NCBI RefSeq assembly: GCF_009931435.1
Contig: NZ_CP043414.1
DNA length: 64,000 bases
DNA from: Escherichia coli
Lineage (GTDB): Bacteria > Pseudomonadota > Gammaproteobacteria > Enterobacterales > Enterobacteriaceae
Direction: 5' to 3' (one strand)
Shown: positions 30,164 to 46,051 of the stretch, piece by piece
How the letters are laid out: every line of letters begins with the position of its first letter
How positions within the stretch are numbered: the first letter of the stretch is position 1
The notes under the pieces: model-generated
The model's input: the letters and a program-made list of their open reading frames with translations, nothing else
Databases searched by the model: none
Told to the model about the DNA's origin: nothing
Translations under genes and position numbers: made by a program

Positions 30164-31072
30164 TTAACTTTGCAGATAGCCGCTTTCTCGCCGAAATTGC
30201 GTGATTAATGACGCGGTCAGTGGTGTCTGGCGACTATCACGCCGCTGAATCAAATAATAGGCCGCTTTCGGTAAAATTTCGCTAACCGGCAACATCACCA
30301 GCCCCTGTCCGTGCAAGGGATCGCAGCCCATTTCTTCAGGTAGTATGCTGAGAAAATCGCTTTTTGCCACCAGACTGATACAGGCTGAAAACGTCTCGCA
30401 GACTACGCCGACCTGTGGCGTTTGCGCCTGATCGTCAAGCAATTCACTCAACTGTTTGTAGTAGCTGCCGTGTGGCGTCGGCATTGTCCAGCTGTAGTCC
30501 AGTAACTGTTTGATCGAACGGGCACCAATGGCGGGATGTCCTGGGCGGCAAAAGATCGCGAATTGCTTTTCCAGTAATTTCTCAAAAGTAAATTCGTGGT
30601 CGTAGGGTCCCTGATAATAGGTATTGATGGTGAAATCCAGTTCTCCCTGGCGCAATTCATTAATCATCGACACCAGTTGCCCTTCCATAATGCGTACTTT
30701 TACCTGCGGATGCTGCTGATGAAAACGAGATATGACAGCTGGCATCAGACTGCGGGAAATACTGGCCCCCATGCCGATATTAATTTGCCCTGCCAGTTGC
30801 CCTTGTCGTTGGCGAATATCCTCTTGCGCTGCGCGCAGCTCTTCAAGAATAAGACTGGCGTGCTGATAAAAACTTTCACCGGCATCAGTTAACGTCACGC
30901 CTTTACTACGGCGAAAAAAGAGTTGCGCCGCTAACCCTTCTTCCAGCTCCTGAATAGATTTACTCAGTGCCGGTTGCGACATATTCAACATTCGGCTCGC
31001 TCCGCGAATGCTGCCCTGACGAGCCACTTCAACAAAAGCCCGAATTTGATGAATTTTTACCTGAAAAGCCAT
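30164..31072 (-). CDS. abgR: LysR-family transcriptional regulator AbgR
   Basis: 302-aa ORF. N-terminal HTH (IRAFVEVARQGSIRGASRMLNMSQPALSKSIQELEEGL). Divergent from abgA. Confidence 0.94.
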   Translation of the reverse strand: MAFQVKIHQIRAFVEVARQGSIRGASRMLNMSQPALSKSIQELEEGLAAQLFFRRSKGVTLTDAGESFYQHASLILEELRAAQEDIRQRQGQLAGQINIGMGASISRSLMPAVISRFHQQHPQVKVRIMEGQLVSMINELRQGELDFTINTYYQGPYDHEFTFEKLLEKQFAIFCRPGHPAIGARSIKQLLDYSWTMPTPHGSYYKQLSELLDDQAQTPQVGVVCETFSACISLVAKSDFLSILPEEMGCDPLHGQGLVMLPVSEILPKAAYYLIQRRDSRQTPLTASLITQFRRESGYLQS

Positions 31073-38448: not shown

Positions 38449-38691
38449 GATGTAATCCTTGTGCAGACAAATTTCTTGTTACCTAACCGTAACAATACCA
38501 TGACATTTCACCGTTGTCTGCTCTGAAAACCTCACCTCTTAGCTGGATTTACAATCAACGCATTGATTAGTTAGCTAATGTTGCTACTTCCTTCCCTGAC
38601 TATTGATGATCTGAATGAATTGTCGCGGTAAAATATCCCCGCCAGGGGTTTCCGGCATGACGACAATTATCTGGAGGAGCCTGATAAAACA

Positions 38692-39723
38692 ATGATCGCT
38701 GAACTGTTTACAAATAATGCGCTTAATCTGGTCATTATTTTCGGTAGCTGCGCAGCATTGATTCTGATGAGCTTTTGGTTTCGCCGCGGAAATCGTAAAA
38801 GAAAAGGATTTTTATTCCATGCGGTGCAATTTTTAATCTACACCATAATTATCAGTGCTGTTGGTAGCATCATTAATTATGTTATAGAAAACTATAAACT
38901 CAAATTTATCACCCCAGGCGTTATCGATTTTATCTGTACGTCCCTGATTGCGGTTATTCTGACGATTAAACTATTTCTGCTGATAAATCAGTTTGAAAAA
39001 CAGCAGATTAAAAAAGGTCGCGATATCACCAGTGCGCGGATTATGTCGCGTATTATCAAAATCACCATTATTGTGGTACTTGTTTTGCTTTATGGCGAAC
39101 ATTTCGGTATGAGCCTTTCTGGCTTGCTGACCTTTGGTGGTATTGGTGGTCTGGCTGTCGGTATGGCCGGTAAAGATATTTTGAGTAACTTCTTTTCCGG
39201 GATTATGCTCTATTTCGACCGTCCTTTTAGTATTGGCGACTGGATCCGTTCACCGGACAGAAATATCGAAGGTACAGTAGCGGAAATTGGCTGGCGAATT
39301 ACCAAAATTACGACCTTTGATAATCGTCCGTTATACGTCCCGAACTCGCTGTTTTCGTCTATCAGCGTAGAAAACCCAGGACGAATGACCAACCGACGTA
39401 TTACCACGACAATCGGTTTACGTTATGAGGATGCGGCAAAAGTGGGAGCCATTGTCGAAGCCGTACGTGAGATGCTTAAAAATCACCCAGCCATCGACCA
39501 GCGACAAACCTTACTGGTTTATTTCAACCAGTTTGCTGACTCGTCATTGAATATTATGGTTTATTGCTTTACCAAAACCACAGTATGGGCTGAATGGCTT
39601 GCCGCCCAGCAGGATGTTTATTTGAAGATTATCGATATTGTACAGTCACACGGCGCGGATTTCGCGTTCCCAAGCCAGACGCTGTATATGGATAACATTA
39701 CACCACCAGACCAGGGTCGTTAA
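38692..39723 (+). CDS. ynaI: MscS-family mechanosensitive channel YnaI
   Basis: 343-aa ORF. N-terminal TM helices, then the conserved MscS beta-domain ([11 protein letters not shown]...[26 protein letters not shown]). Confidence 0.94.
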
Positions 39724-39734
39724 TTCAGACATCA

Positions 39735-39762
39735 CTGGCGTTACCCACAAGGGTAACGCCAG
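39735..39762. terminator. Putative bidirectional terminator hairpin between ynaI and mppA
   Basis: 12-bp perfect stem ctggcgttaccc-acaa-gggtaacgccag; no clean T-run on either side. Confidence 0.4.
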
Positions 39763-39768
39763 TTCACA

Positions 39769-41382
39769 TCAATGTTTCACAATATACATAGTCCGGCTAT
39801 ACGCCACATCTTCCGGGTTATTAATGGGATAACCTTTCAGCCACGGCTTGATTAATCGTCCATTGGTATATTGATAAATTGGTGCAATCGGTGCTTGCTC
39901 CATGAGGATTTTTTCTGCCGCATTGTAATCGGCATTACGCGCTTTAACGGTATTTTCCGTTGATGCCTGGGCCAAAACTTTGTCGTAGGCCGGGTTGTTA
40001 AAACGTGAAATGTTCCCTGAATGCGTTGACGTTAATAATGTCAGGAAGGTGGAGGGTTCATTATAATCCCCCACCCACGAGGCGCGGATAACATCAAAAT
40101 TACCTGTATTACGACTATCGATATAGGTTTTCCATTCCTGATTTTGCAGTTTGACATCTACACCAAGGTTCTTTTTCCACATCGATGCCACAGCAATCGC
40201 AATTTTTTGATGGTTTTCTGAAGTATTATACAAAAGCGTCAGCTTCAGCGGTTTTTGCGGACCATAACCGGCTGCGCTCAACAAAGTTTTTGCCTGCGCA
40301 TTCAGTTCTTCCTGACTCATTTGTTCAAACGGCGAAGGCTCCGGCGTGAATCCGGCAGTAACATCTGGCGTAAAATGCCACGCTGGTTTTTCGCCCGTCC
40401 CCAACACTTTTTCGGTCATCAGGCGGCGATCTATCGTCATACTTAATGCCAGACGAACGCGCTGATCTGCCGTCGGCCCTTTTTGCGTGTTAAACGCATA
40501 ATAATAGGTCCCGAGCTGCGGCGGTGTATAAACCTGCCCCGGAATATCCTTCAACAGCTTCTGATACATATTTTTTGGGAAGGATTCGGTGATATCAATA
40601 TCCCCCGCAAGATAACGCTTAGTGGCTGCGGATTCCTGATTAATTGGCAGGAAGGTCACTTTTTGCAACACCGTTTTGGCGTTATCCCAATAATGAGTAT
40701 TTGGCACCACGACCAGTTTTTCATTGACTACACGCTCTTTAAGAACATAAGCGCCATTGCCGACCAGATTTCCGGGTTTCGTCCACTCTTTCCCGCTTTC
40801 TACGTTAGCTTTTTGCACCGGGAAGAAGGCAAAATTGGCTGTTAAATTCACAAACCATGGCAACGGTTTATCAAGCTGGATTTTCAAAGTACGGGCATCA
40901 ACCGCGGTGACGCCTAGCTGATCAGGCGTAGCTTTACCATCAATAATCGCCTGTGCGTTGTTGATTCCCGCCAGCGCGGCAAACCAGGCAAACGGCGACA
41001 ACGTTTTTGGGTCAACCAGACGTTGCCAGCTGTAGACAAAATCCTGTGCCGTTACCGGTGTGCCATCCGCCCATTTTGCGTTATCGCGCAGGGTGAAAGT
41101 CCAGATACGGTTGTCATTACTTTTCCACTGAGTCGCAACGCCGGGGACAATCTCCCCTTTCTCGTTCTGATTCACCAGTCCTTCAAAAAGATCGCGAATG
41201 ACCTGAATCTCTGGCAGACCCACGGCTTTAGCGGGATCCAGCGACGCAGGCTCATCTTTAATATGGCGCACCAGCTCCTGCTTCTCTGCCAGTACTGTGC
41301 CGCTCGGAACTTCTGCAGCATACGAAAGAGAAATGCTGCTGACCAACAGCGCACAACACGTGACTGAAACAGAGTGCTTCAT
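39769..41382 (-). CDS. mppA: Periplasmic murein tripeptide-binding protein MppA (ABC substrate-binding family 5)
   Basis: 537-aa ORF, signal peptide MKHSVSVTCCALLVSSISLSYA, OppA-like solute-binding protein. Confidence 0.95.
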   Translation of the reverse strand: MKHSVSVTCCALLVSSISLSYAAEVPSGTVLAEKQELVRHIKDEPASLDPAKAVGLPEIQVIRDLFEGLVNQNEKGEIVPGVATQWKSNDNRIWTFTLRDNAKWADGTPVTAQDFVYSWQRLVDPKTLSPFAWFAALAGINNAQAIIDGKATPDQLGVTAVDARTLKIQLDKPLPWFVNLTANFAFFPVQKANVESGKEWTKPGNLVGNGAYVLKERVVNEKLVVVPNTHYWDNAKTVLQKVTFLPINQESAATKRYLAGDIDITESFPKNMYQKLLKDIPGQVYTPPQLGTYYYAFNTQKGPTADQRVRLALSMTIDRRLMTEKVLGTGEKPAWHFTPDVTAGFTPEPSPFEQMSQEELNAQAKTLLSAAGYGPQKPLKLTLLYNTSENHQKIAIAVASMWKKNLGVDVKLQNQEWKTYIDSRNTGNFDVIRASWVGDYNEPSTFLTLLTSTHSGNISRFNNPAYDKVLAQASTENTVKARNADYNAAEKILMEQAPIAPIYQYTNGRLIKPWLKGYPINNPEDVAYSRTMYIVKH

Positions 41383-41564
41383 AAGTTACCCTCAAACCTG
41401 CGTTAATAATCATGCGTAATTATTTGTTTCGCCTTAAAGAAATGCAAACAACTTCCGGCAAAAAAGTGATACAAGATCGATAACATAGCGTTGAAGAAAA
41501 GGATTTGATAATCCGCAAAATTTGCACAACACTGCCTGTAATACTTCCTGAACCAGAGACGATC

Positions 41565-42293
41565 ATGACCGTAACTCGCCCACGCGCCGAACGCGGCGCA
41601 TTTCCGCCCGGTACAGAACATTACGGACGTTCATTATTGGGCGCGCCTTTGATCTGGTTTCCGGCCCCAGCCGCCAGTCACGAAAGTGGTTTGATTCTGG
41701 CTGGCACCCACGGTGATGAAAACTCTTCGGTCGTGACCCTCTCCTGTGCTTTGCGGACATTGACACCTTCTTTGCGCCGCCATCATGTGGTGCTGTGTGT
41801 GAATCCTGACGGCTGCCAGTTAGGGTTACGGGCCAATGCTAATGGCGTGGATTTAAATAGAAACTTTCCGGCAGCAAACTGGAAGGAAGGTGAAACGGTT
41901 TATCGCTGGAACAGCGCCGCTGAAGAACGTGATGTCGTTTTACTGACAGGTGACAAACCTGGCTCCGAACCTGAAACTCAGGCGCTGTGCCAGCTTATAC
42001 ATCGCATTCAACCTGCCTGGGTGGTCTCATTCCACGATCCACTGGCCTGTATTGAAGACCCCAGACACAGCGAATTAGGTGAATGGCTGGCCCAGGCGTT
42101 TGAATTGCCACTGGTCACCAGCGTCGGTTATGAAACGCCTGGCTCTTTCGGCAGTTGGTGTGCGGATCTCAACCTGCATTGCATCACCGCAGAGTTTCCG
42201 CCCATCTCCTCCGACGAAGCCAGCGAAAAATACCTCTTTGCGATGGCTAACTTGCTGCGCTGGCATCCTAAAGATGCAATGCGCCCGTCGTGA
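41565..42293 (+). CDS. mpaA: Murein peptide amidase A (M14 zinc carboxypeptidase-like)
   Basis: About 242 aa from MTVTRPRAERG. HxxE zinc motif (AGTHGDENSS). The track ORF is extended 20 codons upstream. Confidence 0.9.
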   Translation: MTVTRPRAERGAFPPGTEHYGRSLLGAPLIWFPAPAASHESGLILAGTHGDENSSVVTLSCALRTLTPSLRRHHVVLCVNPDGCQLGLRANANGVDLNRNFPAANWKEGETVYRWNSAAEERDVVLLTGDKPGSEPETQALCQLIHRIQPAWVVSFHDPLACIEDPRHSELGEWLAQAFELPLVTSVGYETPGSFGSWCADLNLHCITAEFPPISSDEASEKYLFAMANLLRWHPKDAMRPS

Positions 42294-43233
42294 ATTGAAG
42301 CGCCGGTTCCACATCTACCGCCAGCCAGGTCGGTCCGTCAAGATCAGCAAAACTGACCTGCGGCACCAGCGGTAAAGCGGCGCTAATGGCACGAGAGGTA
42401 CACAACATGCAGCCCAGCATCAGACTGAAACCTTGTGCACGCGCTTCGGTCGCCAGCGCCAGCGCCTCCGTCAGGCCACCCGTTTTATCGAGCTTGATGT
42501 TAACCATCTCATAGCGCCCTTGCAGCGCCTTCAGATTGCTACGGGTATGACAACTTTCATCAGCACAAATCGGTAACGGATGAATAAAATTCTCCAGTGC
42601 CGCATCGTCCTGCGCAGGAAGCGGTTGTTCAAGCATCGCAACGCCTAAATCCGCGAGCAGTTGGCAACGCGCCGCCAACCCTTCTGCACGCCAGGATTCA
42701 TTTGCATCAACGATAAGCGTCGCGTCGGGCACAGCCGTGCGAATTGCTACCATCCGCTCACTGATAAGATGGTTATCCAGCTTCACTTTCAGCAATTTCG
42801 CGCCTGCCTGCCACAGTGTTGATGCACTATTGGCCATCTGATCAGGCGTACCGATGACTACCGTCTGGGCAGTGGTGACTGTCTCGGGAAGCGTTATGCC
42901 GATCAAATCAGCCAGCGATTGCTGCTGTTTTCGCGCCGCCAGATCCCACAATGCACAATCCAGCGCATTACGTGCTGCGCCGGCAGGGAGAATTTTTTGC
43001 AACTCCTCCCGTGTCAGCCCTTTCTCTAATTGCGGCACGACGCTCATAATTTGCGCCATTACCGAGGCATCACTTTCTCCATAACGCGGATACGGCGTGC
43101 ATTCACCGGTGCCTTTAATACCTTCTTCTTCCAGTTCAACCACCACCACGCGCGCTTCACTACGACTTCCCCGAGCAATCACAAACGGGGTATGTAAGGG
43201 CCAGGCTTCCTCAAATACCTTAACGGTTCTCAT
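42268..43233 (-). CDS. ycjG: L-Ala-D/L-Glu epimerase (enolase superfamily)
   Basis: 321 aa from MRTVKVFEEAWPLHTPFVIARG. Enolase-superfamily KxK and metal-binding Asp/Glu residues. 3' end overlaps mpaA by 26 nt (convergent). Confidence 0.92.
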   Translation of the reverse strand: MRTVKVFEEAWPLHTPFVIARGSRSEARVVVVELEEEGIKGTGECTPYPRYGESDASVMAQIMSVVPQLEKGLTREELQKILPAGAARNALDCALWDLAARKQQQSLADLIGITLPETVTTAQTVVIGTPDQMANSASTLWQAGAKLLKVKLDNHLISERMVAIRTAVPDATLIVDANESWRAEGLAARCQLLADLGVAMLEQPLPAQDDAALENFIHPLPICADESCHTRSNLKALQGRYEMVNIKLDKTGGLTEALALATEARAQGFSLMLGCMLCTSRAISAALPLVPQVSFADLDGPTWLAVDVEPALQFTTGALHL

Positions 43234-43351
43234 CTTTACTCCTTGTTGTCGCGGTGGTCTGCGGATTAAGCGCAAATAGCGTTTGCTGTGTTATTGACAG
43301 TTAGCATAAACTAGGTGTGACGTTAACTATATGTAAACAGGAAAGATAATC

Positions 43352-43855
43352 ATGTCACAAACCGTTCATTTCCAGGGCAACCCGGTTACAGTCGCCAATT
43401 CCATCCCGCAGGCGGGTAGCAAAGCGCAGACTTTTACTCTCGTGGCAAAAGATCTGTCTGACGTCACCCTCGGTCAGTTTGCGGGTAAACGCAAAGTGCT
43501 GAACATTTTCCCGAGTATTGATACCGGTGTTTGCGCCGCATCAGTACGTAAGTTTAACCAACTGGCAACCGAGATCGACAACACCGTTGTGCTGTGTATC
43601 TCTGCCGATCTTCCGTTCGCCCAGTCTCGTTTCTGCGGCGCAGAAGGTCTGAACAACGTTATCACCCTCTCCACTTTCCGTAACGCTGAATTCCTGCAAG
43701 CCTACGGTGTGGCAATTGCTGATGGCCCACTGAAAGGTCTGGCAGCGCGTGCCGTTGTGGTTATTGATGAAAATGACAATGTGATTTTCAGCCAGCTGGT
43801 GGATGAAATCACCACCGAGCCGGATTACGAAGCAGCTCTGGCTGTACTGCGCTAA
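43352..43855 (+). CDS. tpx: Thiol peroxidase Tpx (atypical 2-Cys peroxiredoxin)
   Basis: 167-aa ORF. Peroxidatic Cys in [10 protein letters not shown], resolving Cys in LCISADLPF. Confidence 0.97.
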
Positions 43856-43901: not shown

Positions 43902-44008
43902 GATCTACCAGTCCCACTATTTTCCAGAGTTCCTGCCACTATTCCCCCTAACCGTTGTGCATTAAGATTGCTCTTTGCCATTATTAGCCCAGCGGAGTGA
44001 TGACTATT

Positions 44009-46051
44009 ATGGATGATAAACAAATTACGGTCTGGCTTAAACACAATTGCTGTTCAACGGACATTCCTGCCATTGCCGAGGCACTAACGAACCATGCAGA
44101 ATGGCTTTTAGAGCTAGCGCCAGATCCTATTGATCAAGGTAGTTCATGCTTACCGCCGGCAGCTGCAGCTGGTATTTTTCTTGGCGCAGCGGCGATGGTT
44201 CACTGCGGCGAGGCCAGTGGTGCAGAAACCTGGCTCGAAGCAGCCATTACTGATTACCATTTCTTTAATCCAAACGGATATAGTTCATGGAGAGGCAGTA
44301 CGCCTGTTTTTACAGCAATATCGCGTTACCCGGCATTAAAAATGGTGTTATTTAACGCCGCTTGCGCAATGGAAGACTGGAATAAAGCATCCGCTGTTCT
44401 TGAATCGCTTTTCAATGCCAGCGATGTCCCGAAAGATAACCCTGTCGCCCCCAATTTTACCCCTTATGCGCTGAAAGATATTATCGCGGATAACCTCCCG
44501 TTAGGGCCTGCTTATTATGATGAAACCTGGTTGCTGGCAAAACAAGCGTGGTTAATTAATGCGGGCGTTCTGGATGAGCGAACATGCAATACCTGGAAGC
44601 AATATACCCGCCATTTGCGCCATTTGATCCACAATGCACAGTTTTCCGATGCGATCTCTTTTGTACGCAGTAAAAAAGAACCATTAAATCATATCCATAC
44701 CTACTCAGACTTTTATCTCTATGCGATTGGTTTATTTTCTTCTACTGATCAGCTAAGTGAAGCGCTAACCTGGGTAAAACAATTAATCCGCAACAATGAT
44801 GGTCATTTCCATGATCTTTTCGTTTCAACTGGCGCAAAGCGCCGCATAAAGCCTGAACTTAGTACCTTGCTGAATAATCTCTTGCACAGCGCAGAGTTTC
44901 AGGCGTTGCAGGATAAATATCTCACCGTCGGACATGATGTTGTGCATTCTGGTCCCTTCATGTCACTTTATGAAAAGGTTCTTGGCGGTAAGTCCCGAAA
45001 GCGCTGCGCGATTAGTCGAAAATTAATCTCGCCCGGCGAAGCGGTTTATGAATATCGTCAGCTGGATAGTGTGGAATATATTGCAGCGAAAGCGGCCTTT
45101 CAGACATCTGAGCTAAATAATATCGCCCACCGGCATCATAATGATAGTTATCAGTGGCATGAATTTGCCGCCCAATGGCCTCGTCGGGGTTCACTTTCTC
45201 ACCCAGATATTGCCCGTTATTTGTTTGAGCGCCAGGAAGGAAAATGCTTTGATGCCGCAGAGTTTATACCACTGATTGCGGAACCGTTTGTCTTTCCGAT
45301 GCGTTTCATATGGGTTGCCGGGTTGTCCTTTGAATTACATCAGTATCCGGATGCCTATTTCGTAAATGACAATATGGCGGGTGAATTTGTTAATCTCTGC
45401 TGGATGGCTATGAAATGCGGACATGCTGGCGACATTTTCAAACAACTGGCCCACGAGCCGCATGACGTTGCTGACCCTATTTACGCCATGCTCGCCACGT
45501 TTGACCGCTCTGATTGCCGTAGCGCCGCCGCCGCGCACTTTGGACAACCGGAACTACCGGAAATAATGGCACTGGCTTTCAGTTCGAGGTTATCGCTCGA
45601 CAGCGTACTTACCATCGCTGAGTTTGGTAAAAATCAGCCGCGATTTTCACATGCGCTAGCAACGGCCCTCCTGCGTTACAACCTGCACATCTACTCAAAC
45701 TATATGCCGCAGGTTAACTGGTACCTTCAGGGGCTGGAACACTATGCTTTGGCAAAAGGCGGTCAACTTTTAAATTTCTTTGTGCATATTCCAGAACAAA
45801 TTCCCGTTCTGGCGACCATGCTGGAACATGGCGTATTAGTGCGTGGGATCGGTGAAGGTGCCTATGATGGTTATGATAATTCAGCAAATTCATTTCATCA
45901 TGCCGCCGTGATGCACTGCCTTGAGCACGCGCCGGAAAAAGTCCGCTACTGGATGGAAACACCCTGGATTCAGAACTATTTAGTGAATGCGCCGCTGCGT
46001 CAAACGGCGCGCCATGTGGAAGCCTGGCATAAAAAGTTTGGCATCAAATGA
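44009..46051 (+). CDS. Hypothetical protein of about 680 aa, no recognisable domain; accessory gene in the tpx-tyrR spacer
   Basis: Uninterrupted 2-kb ORF. SD ggag at 43994-43997, 11 nt before ATG 44009 (MDDKQITVWLKHNCC...); in-frame GTG 43997 and ATG 44000 are alternative starts. No signal peptide, no obvious TM segments, no Walker/HTH/nuclease motif that I can identify. Rare codons AGA and CTA occur in frame. Confidence 0.75.
   Translation: MDDKQITVWLKHNCCSTDIPAIAEALTNHAEWLLELAPDPIDQGSSCLPPAAAAGIFLGAAAMVHCGEASGAETWLEAAITDYHFFNPNGYSSWRGSTPVFTAISRYPALKMVLFNAACAMEDWNKASAVLESLFNASDVPKDNPVAPNFTPYALKDIIADNLPLGPAYYDETWLLAKQAWLINAGVLDERTCNTWKQYTRHLRHLIHNAQFSDAISFVRSKKEPLNHIHTYSDFYLYAIGLFSSTDQLSEALTWVKQLIRNNDGHFHDLFVSTGAKRRIKPELSTLLNNLLHSAEFQALQDKYLTVGHDVVHSGPFMSLYEKVLGGKSRKRCAISRKLISPGEAVYEYRQLDSVEYIAAKAAFQTSELNNIAHRHHNDSYQWHEFAAQWPRRGSLSHPDIARYLFERQEGKCFDAAEFIPLIAEPFVFPMRFIWVAGLSFELHQYPDAYFVNDNMAGEFVNLCWMAMKCGHAGDIFKQLAHEPHDVADPIYAMLATFDRSDCRSAAAAHFGQPELPEIMALAFSSRLSLDSVLTIAEFGKNQPRFSHALATALLRYNLHIYSNYMPQVNWYLQGLEHYALAKGGQLLNFFVHIPEQIPVLATMLEHGVLVRGIGEGAYDGYDNSANSFHHAAVMHCLEHAPEKVRYWMETPWIQNYLVNAPLRQTARHVEAWHKKFGIK

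Follow-up and report, generated by a model that had tools for sequence, protein, structure and literature searches.

The compact mppA-mpaA divergent gene pair of an Escherichia coli strain without pgrR and ycjY probably represents the ancestral arrangement of the locus

[quoted passage not shown] In the 64-kb stretch of E. coli DNA analysed here (the window), mppA and mpaA are direct neighbors, which raises the question whether this strain departs from the norm of the species or whether K-12 does. The original prediction had taken the first view: the two genes would share one compact control region, the ymjC-ycjY-pgrR segment and with it the local LysR-type regulator would be missing, and the strain would therefore be regulated differently. 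We compared the locus with K-12, with the complete E. coli genomes and with other bacterial species. The description of the locus was largely borne out by these comparisons, while its interpretation had to be turned around.

The features of the gene pair and of its spacer are collected in Table 1. Both start codons, predicted at 41382 for mppA and at 41565 for mpaA, were confirmed, as the ORF listing and the MpaA profile match agree on them and on the 182 bp between them. The MpaA equivalog NF007897 matched the protein with 478.7 bits (cutoff 157) over residues 1-236; the match begins at residue 1 of the ORF starting with the ATG at 41565, and RefSeq uses the same start in the closest complete genome. 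For MppA, NCBIfam returned no MppA-specific match, the top hit being OppA under its cutoff. The protein is nevertheless 99.6% identical to K-12 MppA, with two differing residues, and its homolog in the closest complete genome is named mppA by RefSeq. MpaA is 99.2% identical to its K-12 counterpart, again with two differing residues. The window thus contains the MpaA and MppA orthologs next to each other on opposite strands with their start codons facing, separated by a spacer that falls in the range of about 180-190 bp, is colinear throughout with the spacers of other genera and is free of foreign DNA. The claim of one compact divergent region common to both genes was therefore upheld by the coordinates as well as by end-to-end alignment. 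Downstream of mpaA, the 3' end of ycjG overlaps that of mpaA by 26 bp; position and annotation of ycjG are identical in the closest genome and in K-12, and its product carries out the next step of the catabolic pathway to which MpaA belongs.

Table 1. Coordinates of the mppA-mpaA locus and of the elements recognized in its spacer (window positions).
Feature	Position	Strand	Basis and remarks
mppA, murein tripeptide ABC transporter periplasmic binding protein	39769-41382	minus	537 aa, ATG start; ORF listing
mppA/mpaA divergent intergenic region	41383-41564		182 bp, uninterrupted
Shine-Dalgarno-like GAGGG of mppA	41389-41393	minus	inferred; plus-strand CCCTC, 6-10 nt ahead of the start codon; columns at least 95% conserved in 74 spacers
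predicted sigma-70 promoter of mppA	41419-41448	minus	TTTGCA (41448-41443), 18 nt, AATAAT (41424-41419)
single copy of the segment-flanking repeat	41440-41469		K-12 segment inserted directly after 41469; blastn and base-by-base alignment
conserved block AAGGATTTGATA of the mpaA side	41499-41510	plus	contains -35-like TTGATA (41505-41510); conservation profile
most conserved spacer block, TTTGCACAACACTGCC	41521-41536	plus	29-44 nt upstream of the mpaA start
mpaA, murein tripeptide amidase	41565-42293	plus	242 aa; NCBIfam NF007897 equivalog
ycjG, L-Ala-D/L-Glu epimerase	42268-43233	minus	NCBIfam NF011708 equivalog, 676 bits

The absence of the segment from the window was examined at both the protein and the DNA level. 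Searching the 64 kb by tblastn with PgrR, YcjY and YmjC gave no ortholog; the sole match of the PgrR and YcjY searches was a LysR paralog of 26% identity at 30656-31057. Likewise, blastn of the K-12 segment against the 64 kb recovered no segment DNA, nor any remnant of it in the spacer. The ymjC-ycjY-pgrR segment is accordingly missing from the window, as had been proposed.

In the K-12 MG1655 record the gene order is mpaA, ymjC, ymjD, ycjY, pgrR, mppA (b1326-b1329 locus), with 2,628 bp between the start codons of the outer genes, so that mpaA and mppA are not adjacent there. The statement that pgrR and other genes lie between them in K-12 was correct, except that four CDS are annotated and not three. 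Aligning the window with this locus by blastn gave two colinear blocks, one on the mppA side (38571-41469) and one on the mpaA side (41440-43849); the break falls in the spacer, where K-12 has 2,446 bp extra. The two blocks have 30 nt in common, AAATGCAAACAACTTCC[GG/AT]CAAAAAAGTGA, which occur once in the window and twice in K-12, where they form an imperfect direct repeat bracketing the 2,446-bp segment. The corresponding repeat measures 37 nt with 84% identity in strain E2348/69 and 25 nt in SRCC 1675. With one copy of the repeat against two in occupied (segment-carrying) genomes, and with neither pgrR nor ycjY between the genes, the window is not of the K-12 type. K-12 in turn has kept 87 bp adjoining mppA and 125 bp adjoining mpaA, including all blocks that are conserved in the family.

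The segment itself varies among strains. The K-12 genes ymjD and ymjC are the remains of an SDR/NAD(P)H-binding gene (Pfam PF13460), which is full-length in E2348/69 and SRCC 1675, and the last 18 codons of the K-12 'ymjC' ORF are duplicated native spacer sequence. Some E. coli segments contain an additional alpha/beta hydrolase gene with a frameshift and, near pgrR, a fragment annotated as queH; depending on the strain, the start codons of mpaA and mppA are 2.6, 3.3 or 4.2 kb apart in occupied E. coli. In SRCC 1675 the RefSeq queH fragment lies between pgrR and mppA, a hint at the surroundings that the segment had in its donor. Apart from the segment, we noticed that the IS5 copy (IS5F, insH4) located between ynaI and ynaJ in K-12 is missing from the window. 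The K-12 alignment blocks overlap there by 4 nt at window positions 38571-38574, consistent with an unoccupied IS5 target.

The single repeat copy can be read in two directions. Either the lineage of the window never received the segment, or its ancestor held pgrR-ycjY and a precise deletion between the 30-37 nt repeats, through recombination or slippage during replication, restored the 182-bp spacer. Such a secondary loss draws support from the anatomy of the locus, since repeats flanked the segment on either side in all occupied variants that were looked at, and a repeat of this kind permits an exact deletion that leaves a spacer indistinguishable from the ancestral one. The absence of a segment remnant from the window, in contrast, speaks against it.

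The distribution of the empty site was investigated in 5,426 complete E. coli genomes. With a 3.6-kb query, contiguous mppA-mpaA (at least 80% coverage in one place) was found in 196 of them; with a 441-bp query centred on the junction, 173 were contiguous. DNA of ycjY-pgrR was matched in 5,243 genomes and was lacking altogether in 183, a number close to the 173 contiguous genomes plus 8 that had no match to the locus at all. Roughly 3% of the complete E. coli genomes thus have an empty site, and judging from these counts a pgrR copy elsewhere in the genome of the window strain is unlikely. Partial deletions of the segment do exist, as 24 genomes gave only partial matches, a finding that favors the possibility of secondary loss.

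Within E. coli, the empty alleles can be assigned to at least three sequence backgrounds. The window-type background comprises 16 complete genomes, whose identity to the window over 24 kb is 98.3-98.9% (98.9% being the highest identity among complete genomes), and the junction is unbroken in all 16, which argues against a deletion in this lineage. The second background, represented by strain 3150, is common and belongs to mainstream E. coli. The left part of its spacer is identical to the left K-12 flank and the right part, which is window-like, nearly identical to the right K-12 flank, as a deletion would predict. The third, represented by 6EVA, is rare (9 genomes) and strongly divergent in the mpaA-proximal half of the spacer. 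In 6EVA (locus L085, 7689-7870) this half differs strongly from all other Escherichia and resembles Citrobacter in places, and the mppA-proximal half equals that of K-12; the MpaA protein of 6EVA is a common E. coli allele. Across the region the window is about 95-96.7% identical to K-12, and it is about 96-96.5% identical to mainstream E. coli. With an identity to typical E. coli of about 96.5% over 24 kb, the window therefore comes from a divergent lineage that is labelled E. coli in RefSeq.

To place these alleles in a wider context, bacteria were scanned for MpaA using one genome per species. The scan returned 80 loci, among which the canonical representatives of E. coli, E. fergusonii and S. 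enterica subsp. enterica are missing, and MppA, MpaA, YcjG, Tpx, TyrR, PgrR and YcjY were placed in each locus by tblastn. Divergent mppA and mpaA were present in 76 loci, and in 73 of these the spacer was compact (138-316 bp, mode 182-185 bp). The compact loci include E. albertii, E. whittamii, Escherichia sp. MOD1-EC7003 and two Escherichia lineages of species rank that were deposited as E. coli E69 and SCPM-O-B-8794, as well as Citrobacter, Enterobacter, Leclercia, Kluyvera, Kosakonia, Klebsiella and Raoultella. The three exceptions comprised one locus with pgrR-ycjY, in Escherichia sp. E1V33, and two loci with an unrelated insert, in Salmonella enterica subsp. arizonae and diarizonae. The window spacer could be aligned from end to end with 11 other empty spacers. 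These spacers measure 182 bp in E. albertii, E. whittamii and MOD1-EC7003, the last differing from the window at only 3 positions, and 183-189 bp in Citrobacter, Enterobacter and Klebsiella.

The segment of E1V33 is 97-98.5% identical to K-12 in pgrR, ycjY and ymjDC, compared with 86-90% in mppA, mpaA, ycjG and tyrR. Being far closer to K-12 than its flanks are, the segment was therefore probably exchanged horizontally, long after the species split, and the discordance indicates a recent inter-species transfer, presumably by recombination through the flanks. The E1V33 segment (locus L005, 5461-7876) is the same truncated version as in K-12. Among the six loci of Escherichia species other than E. 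coli, five are empty and the sixth, E1V33, has an imported segment, which again argues against an ancestor that held pgrR-ycjY.

A single nucleotide in the spacer bears on the choice as well. Position 41486 is A (in the context GATAACATAG) in the window, in MOD1-EC7003, in other empty spacers and in strain 3150, but G in the occupied alleles of K-12 and E2348/69. The window thus carries the base of MOD1-EC7003 and other empty spacers and not that of these two occupied alleles, which argues against secondary loss. Weighing both sides, we regard a precise deletion in the lineage of the window as unlikely. That the segment is present in the strain and was collapsed during assembly across the 30-nt repeat, which does sit exactly at the junction in occupied genomes, has a next to negligible probability. 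The same 182-bp junction occurs in 173-196 complete E. coli genomes that were finished independently, and the directly divergent pair in 73 species loci; modern assemblies would not collapse at a repeat as short as this; and lineage-specific variants in the single repeat copy and in its flanks fit an uninterrupted haplotype.

The outgroup distribution, the colinear spacers and the discordance in E1V33 together lead us to the reading that the compact arrangement is ancestral and that of K-12 derived. We consider it highly probable that the compact form is ancestral and that the segment is primarily absent from the lineage of the window, a reading that rests on parsimony, on the uniformly empty relatives and on the one diagnostic SNP. 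The view that this strain departs from the norm had therefore to be reversed: the compact form of the 73 species loci would be the ancestral one, and the K-12 segment, judging from the alignments, was acquired by insertion and has a duplicated stretch of spacer sequence at its borders. In the sequence of events that we propose, the window would represent the never-interrupted divergent pair of a lineage that never received the segment. In most E. coli, including K-12, an accessory segment would have entered the poorly conserved centre of the spacer, its insertion duplicating about 30-37 nt. The segment comprises a queH remnant, pgrR, ycjY, optionally a second hydrolase gene, and the SDR gene that survives in truncated form in K-12 as ymjD/ymjC.

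The spacer was found interrupted in Salmonella too. In S. enterica subsp. arizonae and diarizonae (loci L023, 5449-7677, and L025), the mppA-mpaA spacer contains an insert of 3.2-3.4 kb with 41% G+C and three co-oriented ORFs of 270, 275 and 191 aa, matching a CDtoxinA domain, CdtB (NF011787, 379 bits) and a CDtoxinA domain, respectively. From these matches the insert can be recognized as a cdtABC-type toxin islet encoding CdtA, CdtB and CdtC homologs. It retains the mpaA-proximal conserved blocks of the spacer and replaces the mppA-proximal ones. The mpaA-side boundaries of this islet and of the E. coli segment lie within about 20 nt of each other. Flanking direct repeats were looked for around the Salmonella insert and none were found, so that a common insertion mechanism for the islet and the E. 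coli segment is not supported. The pgrR-ycjY-SDR segment, for its part, shows a target duplication of 30-37 nt and has moved between Escherichia species. That cargo without an integrase repeatedly and preferentially enters the centre of the spacer through an undescribed mechanism, and not because insertions sparing both promoters are selected, seems quite improbable to us.

To examine the control sequences in the spacer, a conservation profile was built on 74 enterobacterial spacers. Four blocks were at least 95% conserved, namely GTAATTATTTGTTTC at 41417-41431, AAATGCAAA at 41440-41448, AAGGATTTGAT at 41499-41509 and the TTTGCACAACACTGCC block listed in Table 1, and the same degree of conservation was observed in the ribosome-binding regions of mppA and mpaA. 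Scanning 41300-41650 for promoters gave one promoter-like site, TTTGCA with AATAAT. As these two elements coincide with the first two conserved blocks, the site was taken as the predicted promoter of mppA. On the mpaA side, TTGATA followed after 17 nt by AACACT (41528-41533) may serve as the promoter; this candidate has 8 of 12 matches and stayed under the threshold of the scan. Its -10 element is weak (3 of 6 matches) and is located inside the 16-nt block at 41521-41536.

This 16-nt block stands out in the spacer. Nearly all of its columns are at least 80-95% conserved in the 74 spacers, from Escherichia to Klebsiella, and it has been kept upstream of mpaA in K-12 and in Salmonella arizonae and diarizonae despite the inserts. 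The block may be a weak -10 region, a regulator-binding site, or both. A sigma-54 reading of TTTGCACAACACTGCC was rejected, as the GC of the -12 element sits one base too near GCAC, the -24-like motif, and the GG lacks its first G. For CRP-like, Nac-like and Fur-like sites in the spacer the half-sites fall in non-conserved columns, and we make no claim for them. Rfam models gave no known RNA element in 41000-42000 with E-values up to 1. Positions around 41472-41498, in the centre of the spacer, are not conserved. It is at or beside this stretch that the E. coli segment is placed and that the Salmonella insert has its mpaA-side boundary, which fits selection against insertions damaging either promoter.

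Beyond the gene pair, the window has a 684-aa ORF on the plus strand (43997-46051) between tpx and tyrR, which is also present in the closest relatives. K-12 is without it, and the tpx-tyrR gap there is 43 bp. The ORF had no match in Pfam, NCBIfam or PADLOC. Among 5.8 billion proteins its homologs form 8 clusters, with 90% identity in E. coli, 56-58% in Salmonella, and a few others. An AlphaFold model had a mean pLDDT of 61.8, with confidence limited to the all-alpha N-terminal ~310 residues; a Foldseek search of the PDB with this model returned only generic matches to TPR-like solenoids with E-values above 0.01. The Salmonella homolog is found in an island together with a gene of the TsiV family (T6SS immunity), a DUF4034 gene and IS fragments. 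Gaps of 0.7-4.3 kb between tpx and tyrR, against the usual size of about 50 bp, were seen in twelve further Enterobacteriaceae loci (L018, L029, L033-L035, L054, L056, L059, L064, L067, L081 and L082), and none of these gaps contained a detectable homolog of the 684-aa ORF.

What the missing segment means for regulation can be inferred from what has been reported for K-12. A summary table gives ycjG, ycjXF-tyrR and ycjY-ymjDC-mpaA as the PgrR regulon (PMC5934670), and constitutive divergent promoters have been listed in the ycjY/pgrR spacer (PMC3946193). MppA together with OppBCDF imports the murein tripeptide, MpaA cleaves it, and YcjG epimerises L-Ala-D-Glu (PMC13204101). As the window is without the segment, neither PgrR control nor the ycjY-ymjDC-mpaA unit can exist at its locus. 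The proposed lack of a local LysR-type regulator therefore held, and PgrR control of the kind described in K-12 is not possible from this site.

We picture the 182-bp spacer as two control regions placed back to back, with the predicted sigma-70 promoter (TTTGCA-18-AATAAT) on the mppA side and the TTGATA and TTTGCACAACACTGCC blocks on the mpaA side. In the window strain, mppA and mpaA would be driven by these native promoters only. Repression by PgrR would be absent, and so would read-through from the ycjY promoter into mpaA, which in K-12 is reported to belong to the ycjY-ymjDC-mpaA unit. The pathway context given by MppA, MpaA and YcjG would be unchanged. Since K-12 has kept 87 bp and 125 bp of the spacer with all conserved blocks, the two arrangements do not differ in their core control sequences. 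The expectation of a different regulation was thus supported in part: the local PgrR layer is lacking, but the core sequences that would control the two genes are common to both forms of the locus.

Many public genomes, of E. coli as well as of other Enterobacteriaceae, are already annotated with the compact arrangement, and the absence of pgrR-ycjY is an ordinary accessory-gene polymorphism. Its importance lies in how K-12 is to be read, as K-12 should not be used as the reference state of the mppA-mpaA locus. PgrR appears to be encoded on an acquired segment, which about 3% of the complete E. coli genomes lack, as do nearly all of the other Enterobacteriaceae that were examined. The control of mpaA by PgrR would accordingly have been added, in particular lineages, to a divergent control region that is older and conserved, and caution is advisable when the PgrR regulon is extrapolated to other strains or genera. 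The 16-nt block upstream of mpaA, conserved throughout the family, seems a reasonable target in the search for a native regulator.

Compared with K-12, the window has the same order and orientation of ynaI, mppA, mpaA, ycjG, tpx and tyrR, with proteins of 98.8-99.6% amino acid identity. K-12 differs by the 2,446 bp in the middle of the spacer, which encode the LysR-type repressor PgrR, the alpha/beta hydrolase YcjY and the truncated SDR (ymjD/ymjC). The 182-bp junction of the window is found again in strains 2013C-4282 and WL297, which are 98.7-98.9% identical to it over 24 kb and likewise have the 684-aa ORF between tpx and tyrR. Strains 3150 and 6EVA have this junction as well, but in 3150 the flanks are K-12-like and in 6EVA the mpaA-proximal half is divergent. 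The pairs of E. albertii, E. whittamii, Citrobacter, Enterobacter, Klebsiella and other Enterobacteriaceae show the same divergent orientation, a spacer of 182-189 bp and the conserved blocks at the same positions, and they differ from the window just by nucleotide divergence in the non-conserved parts of the spacer.
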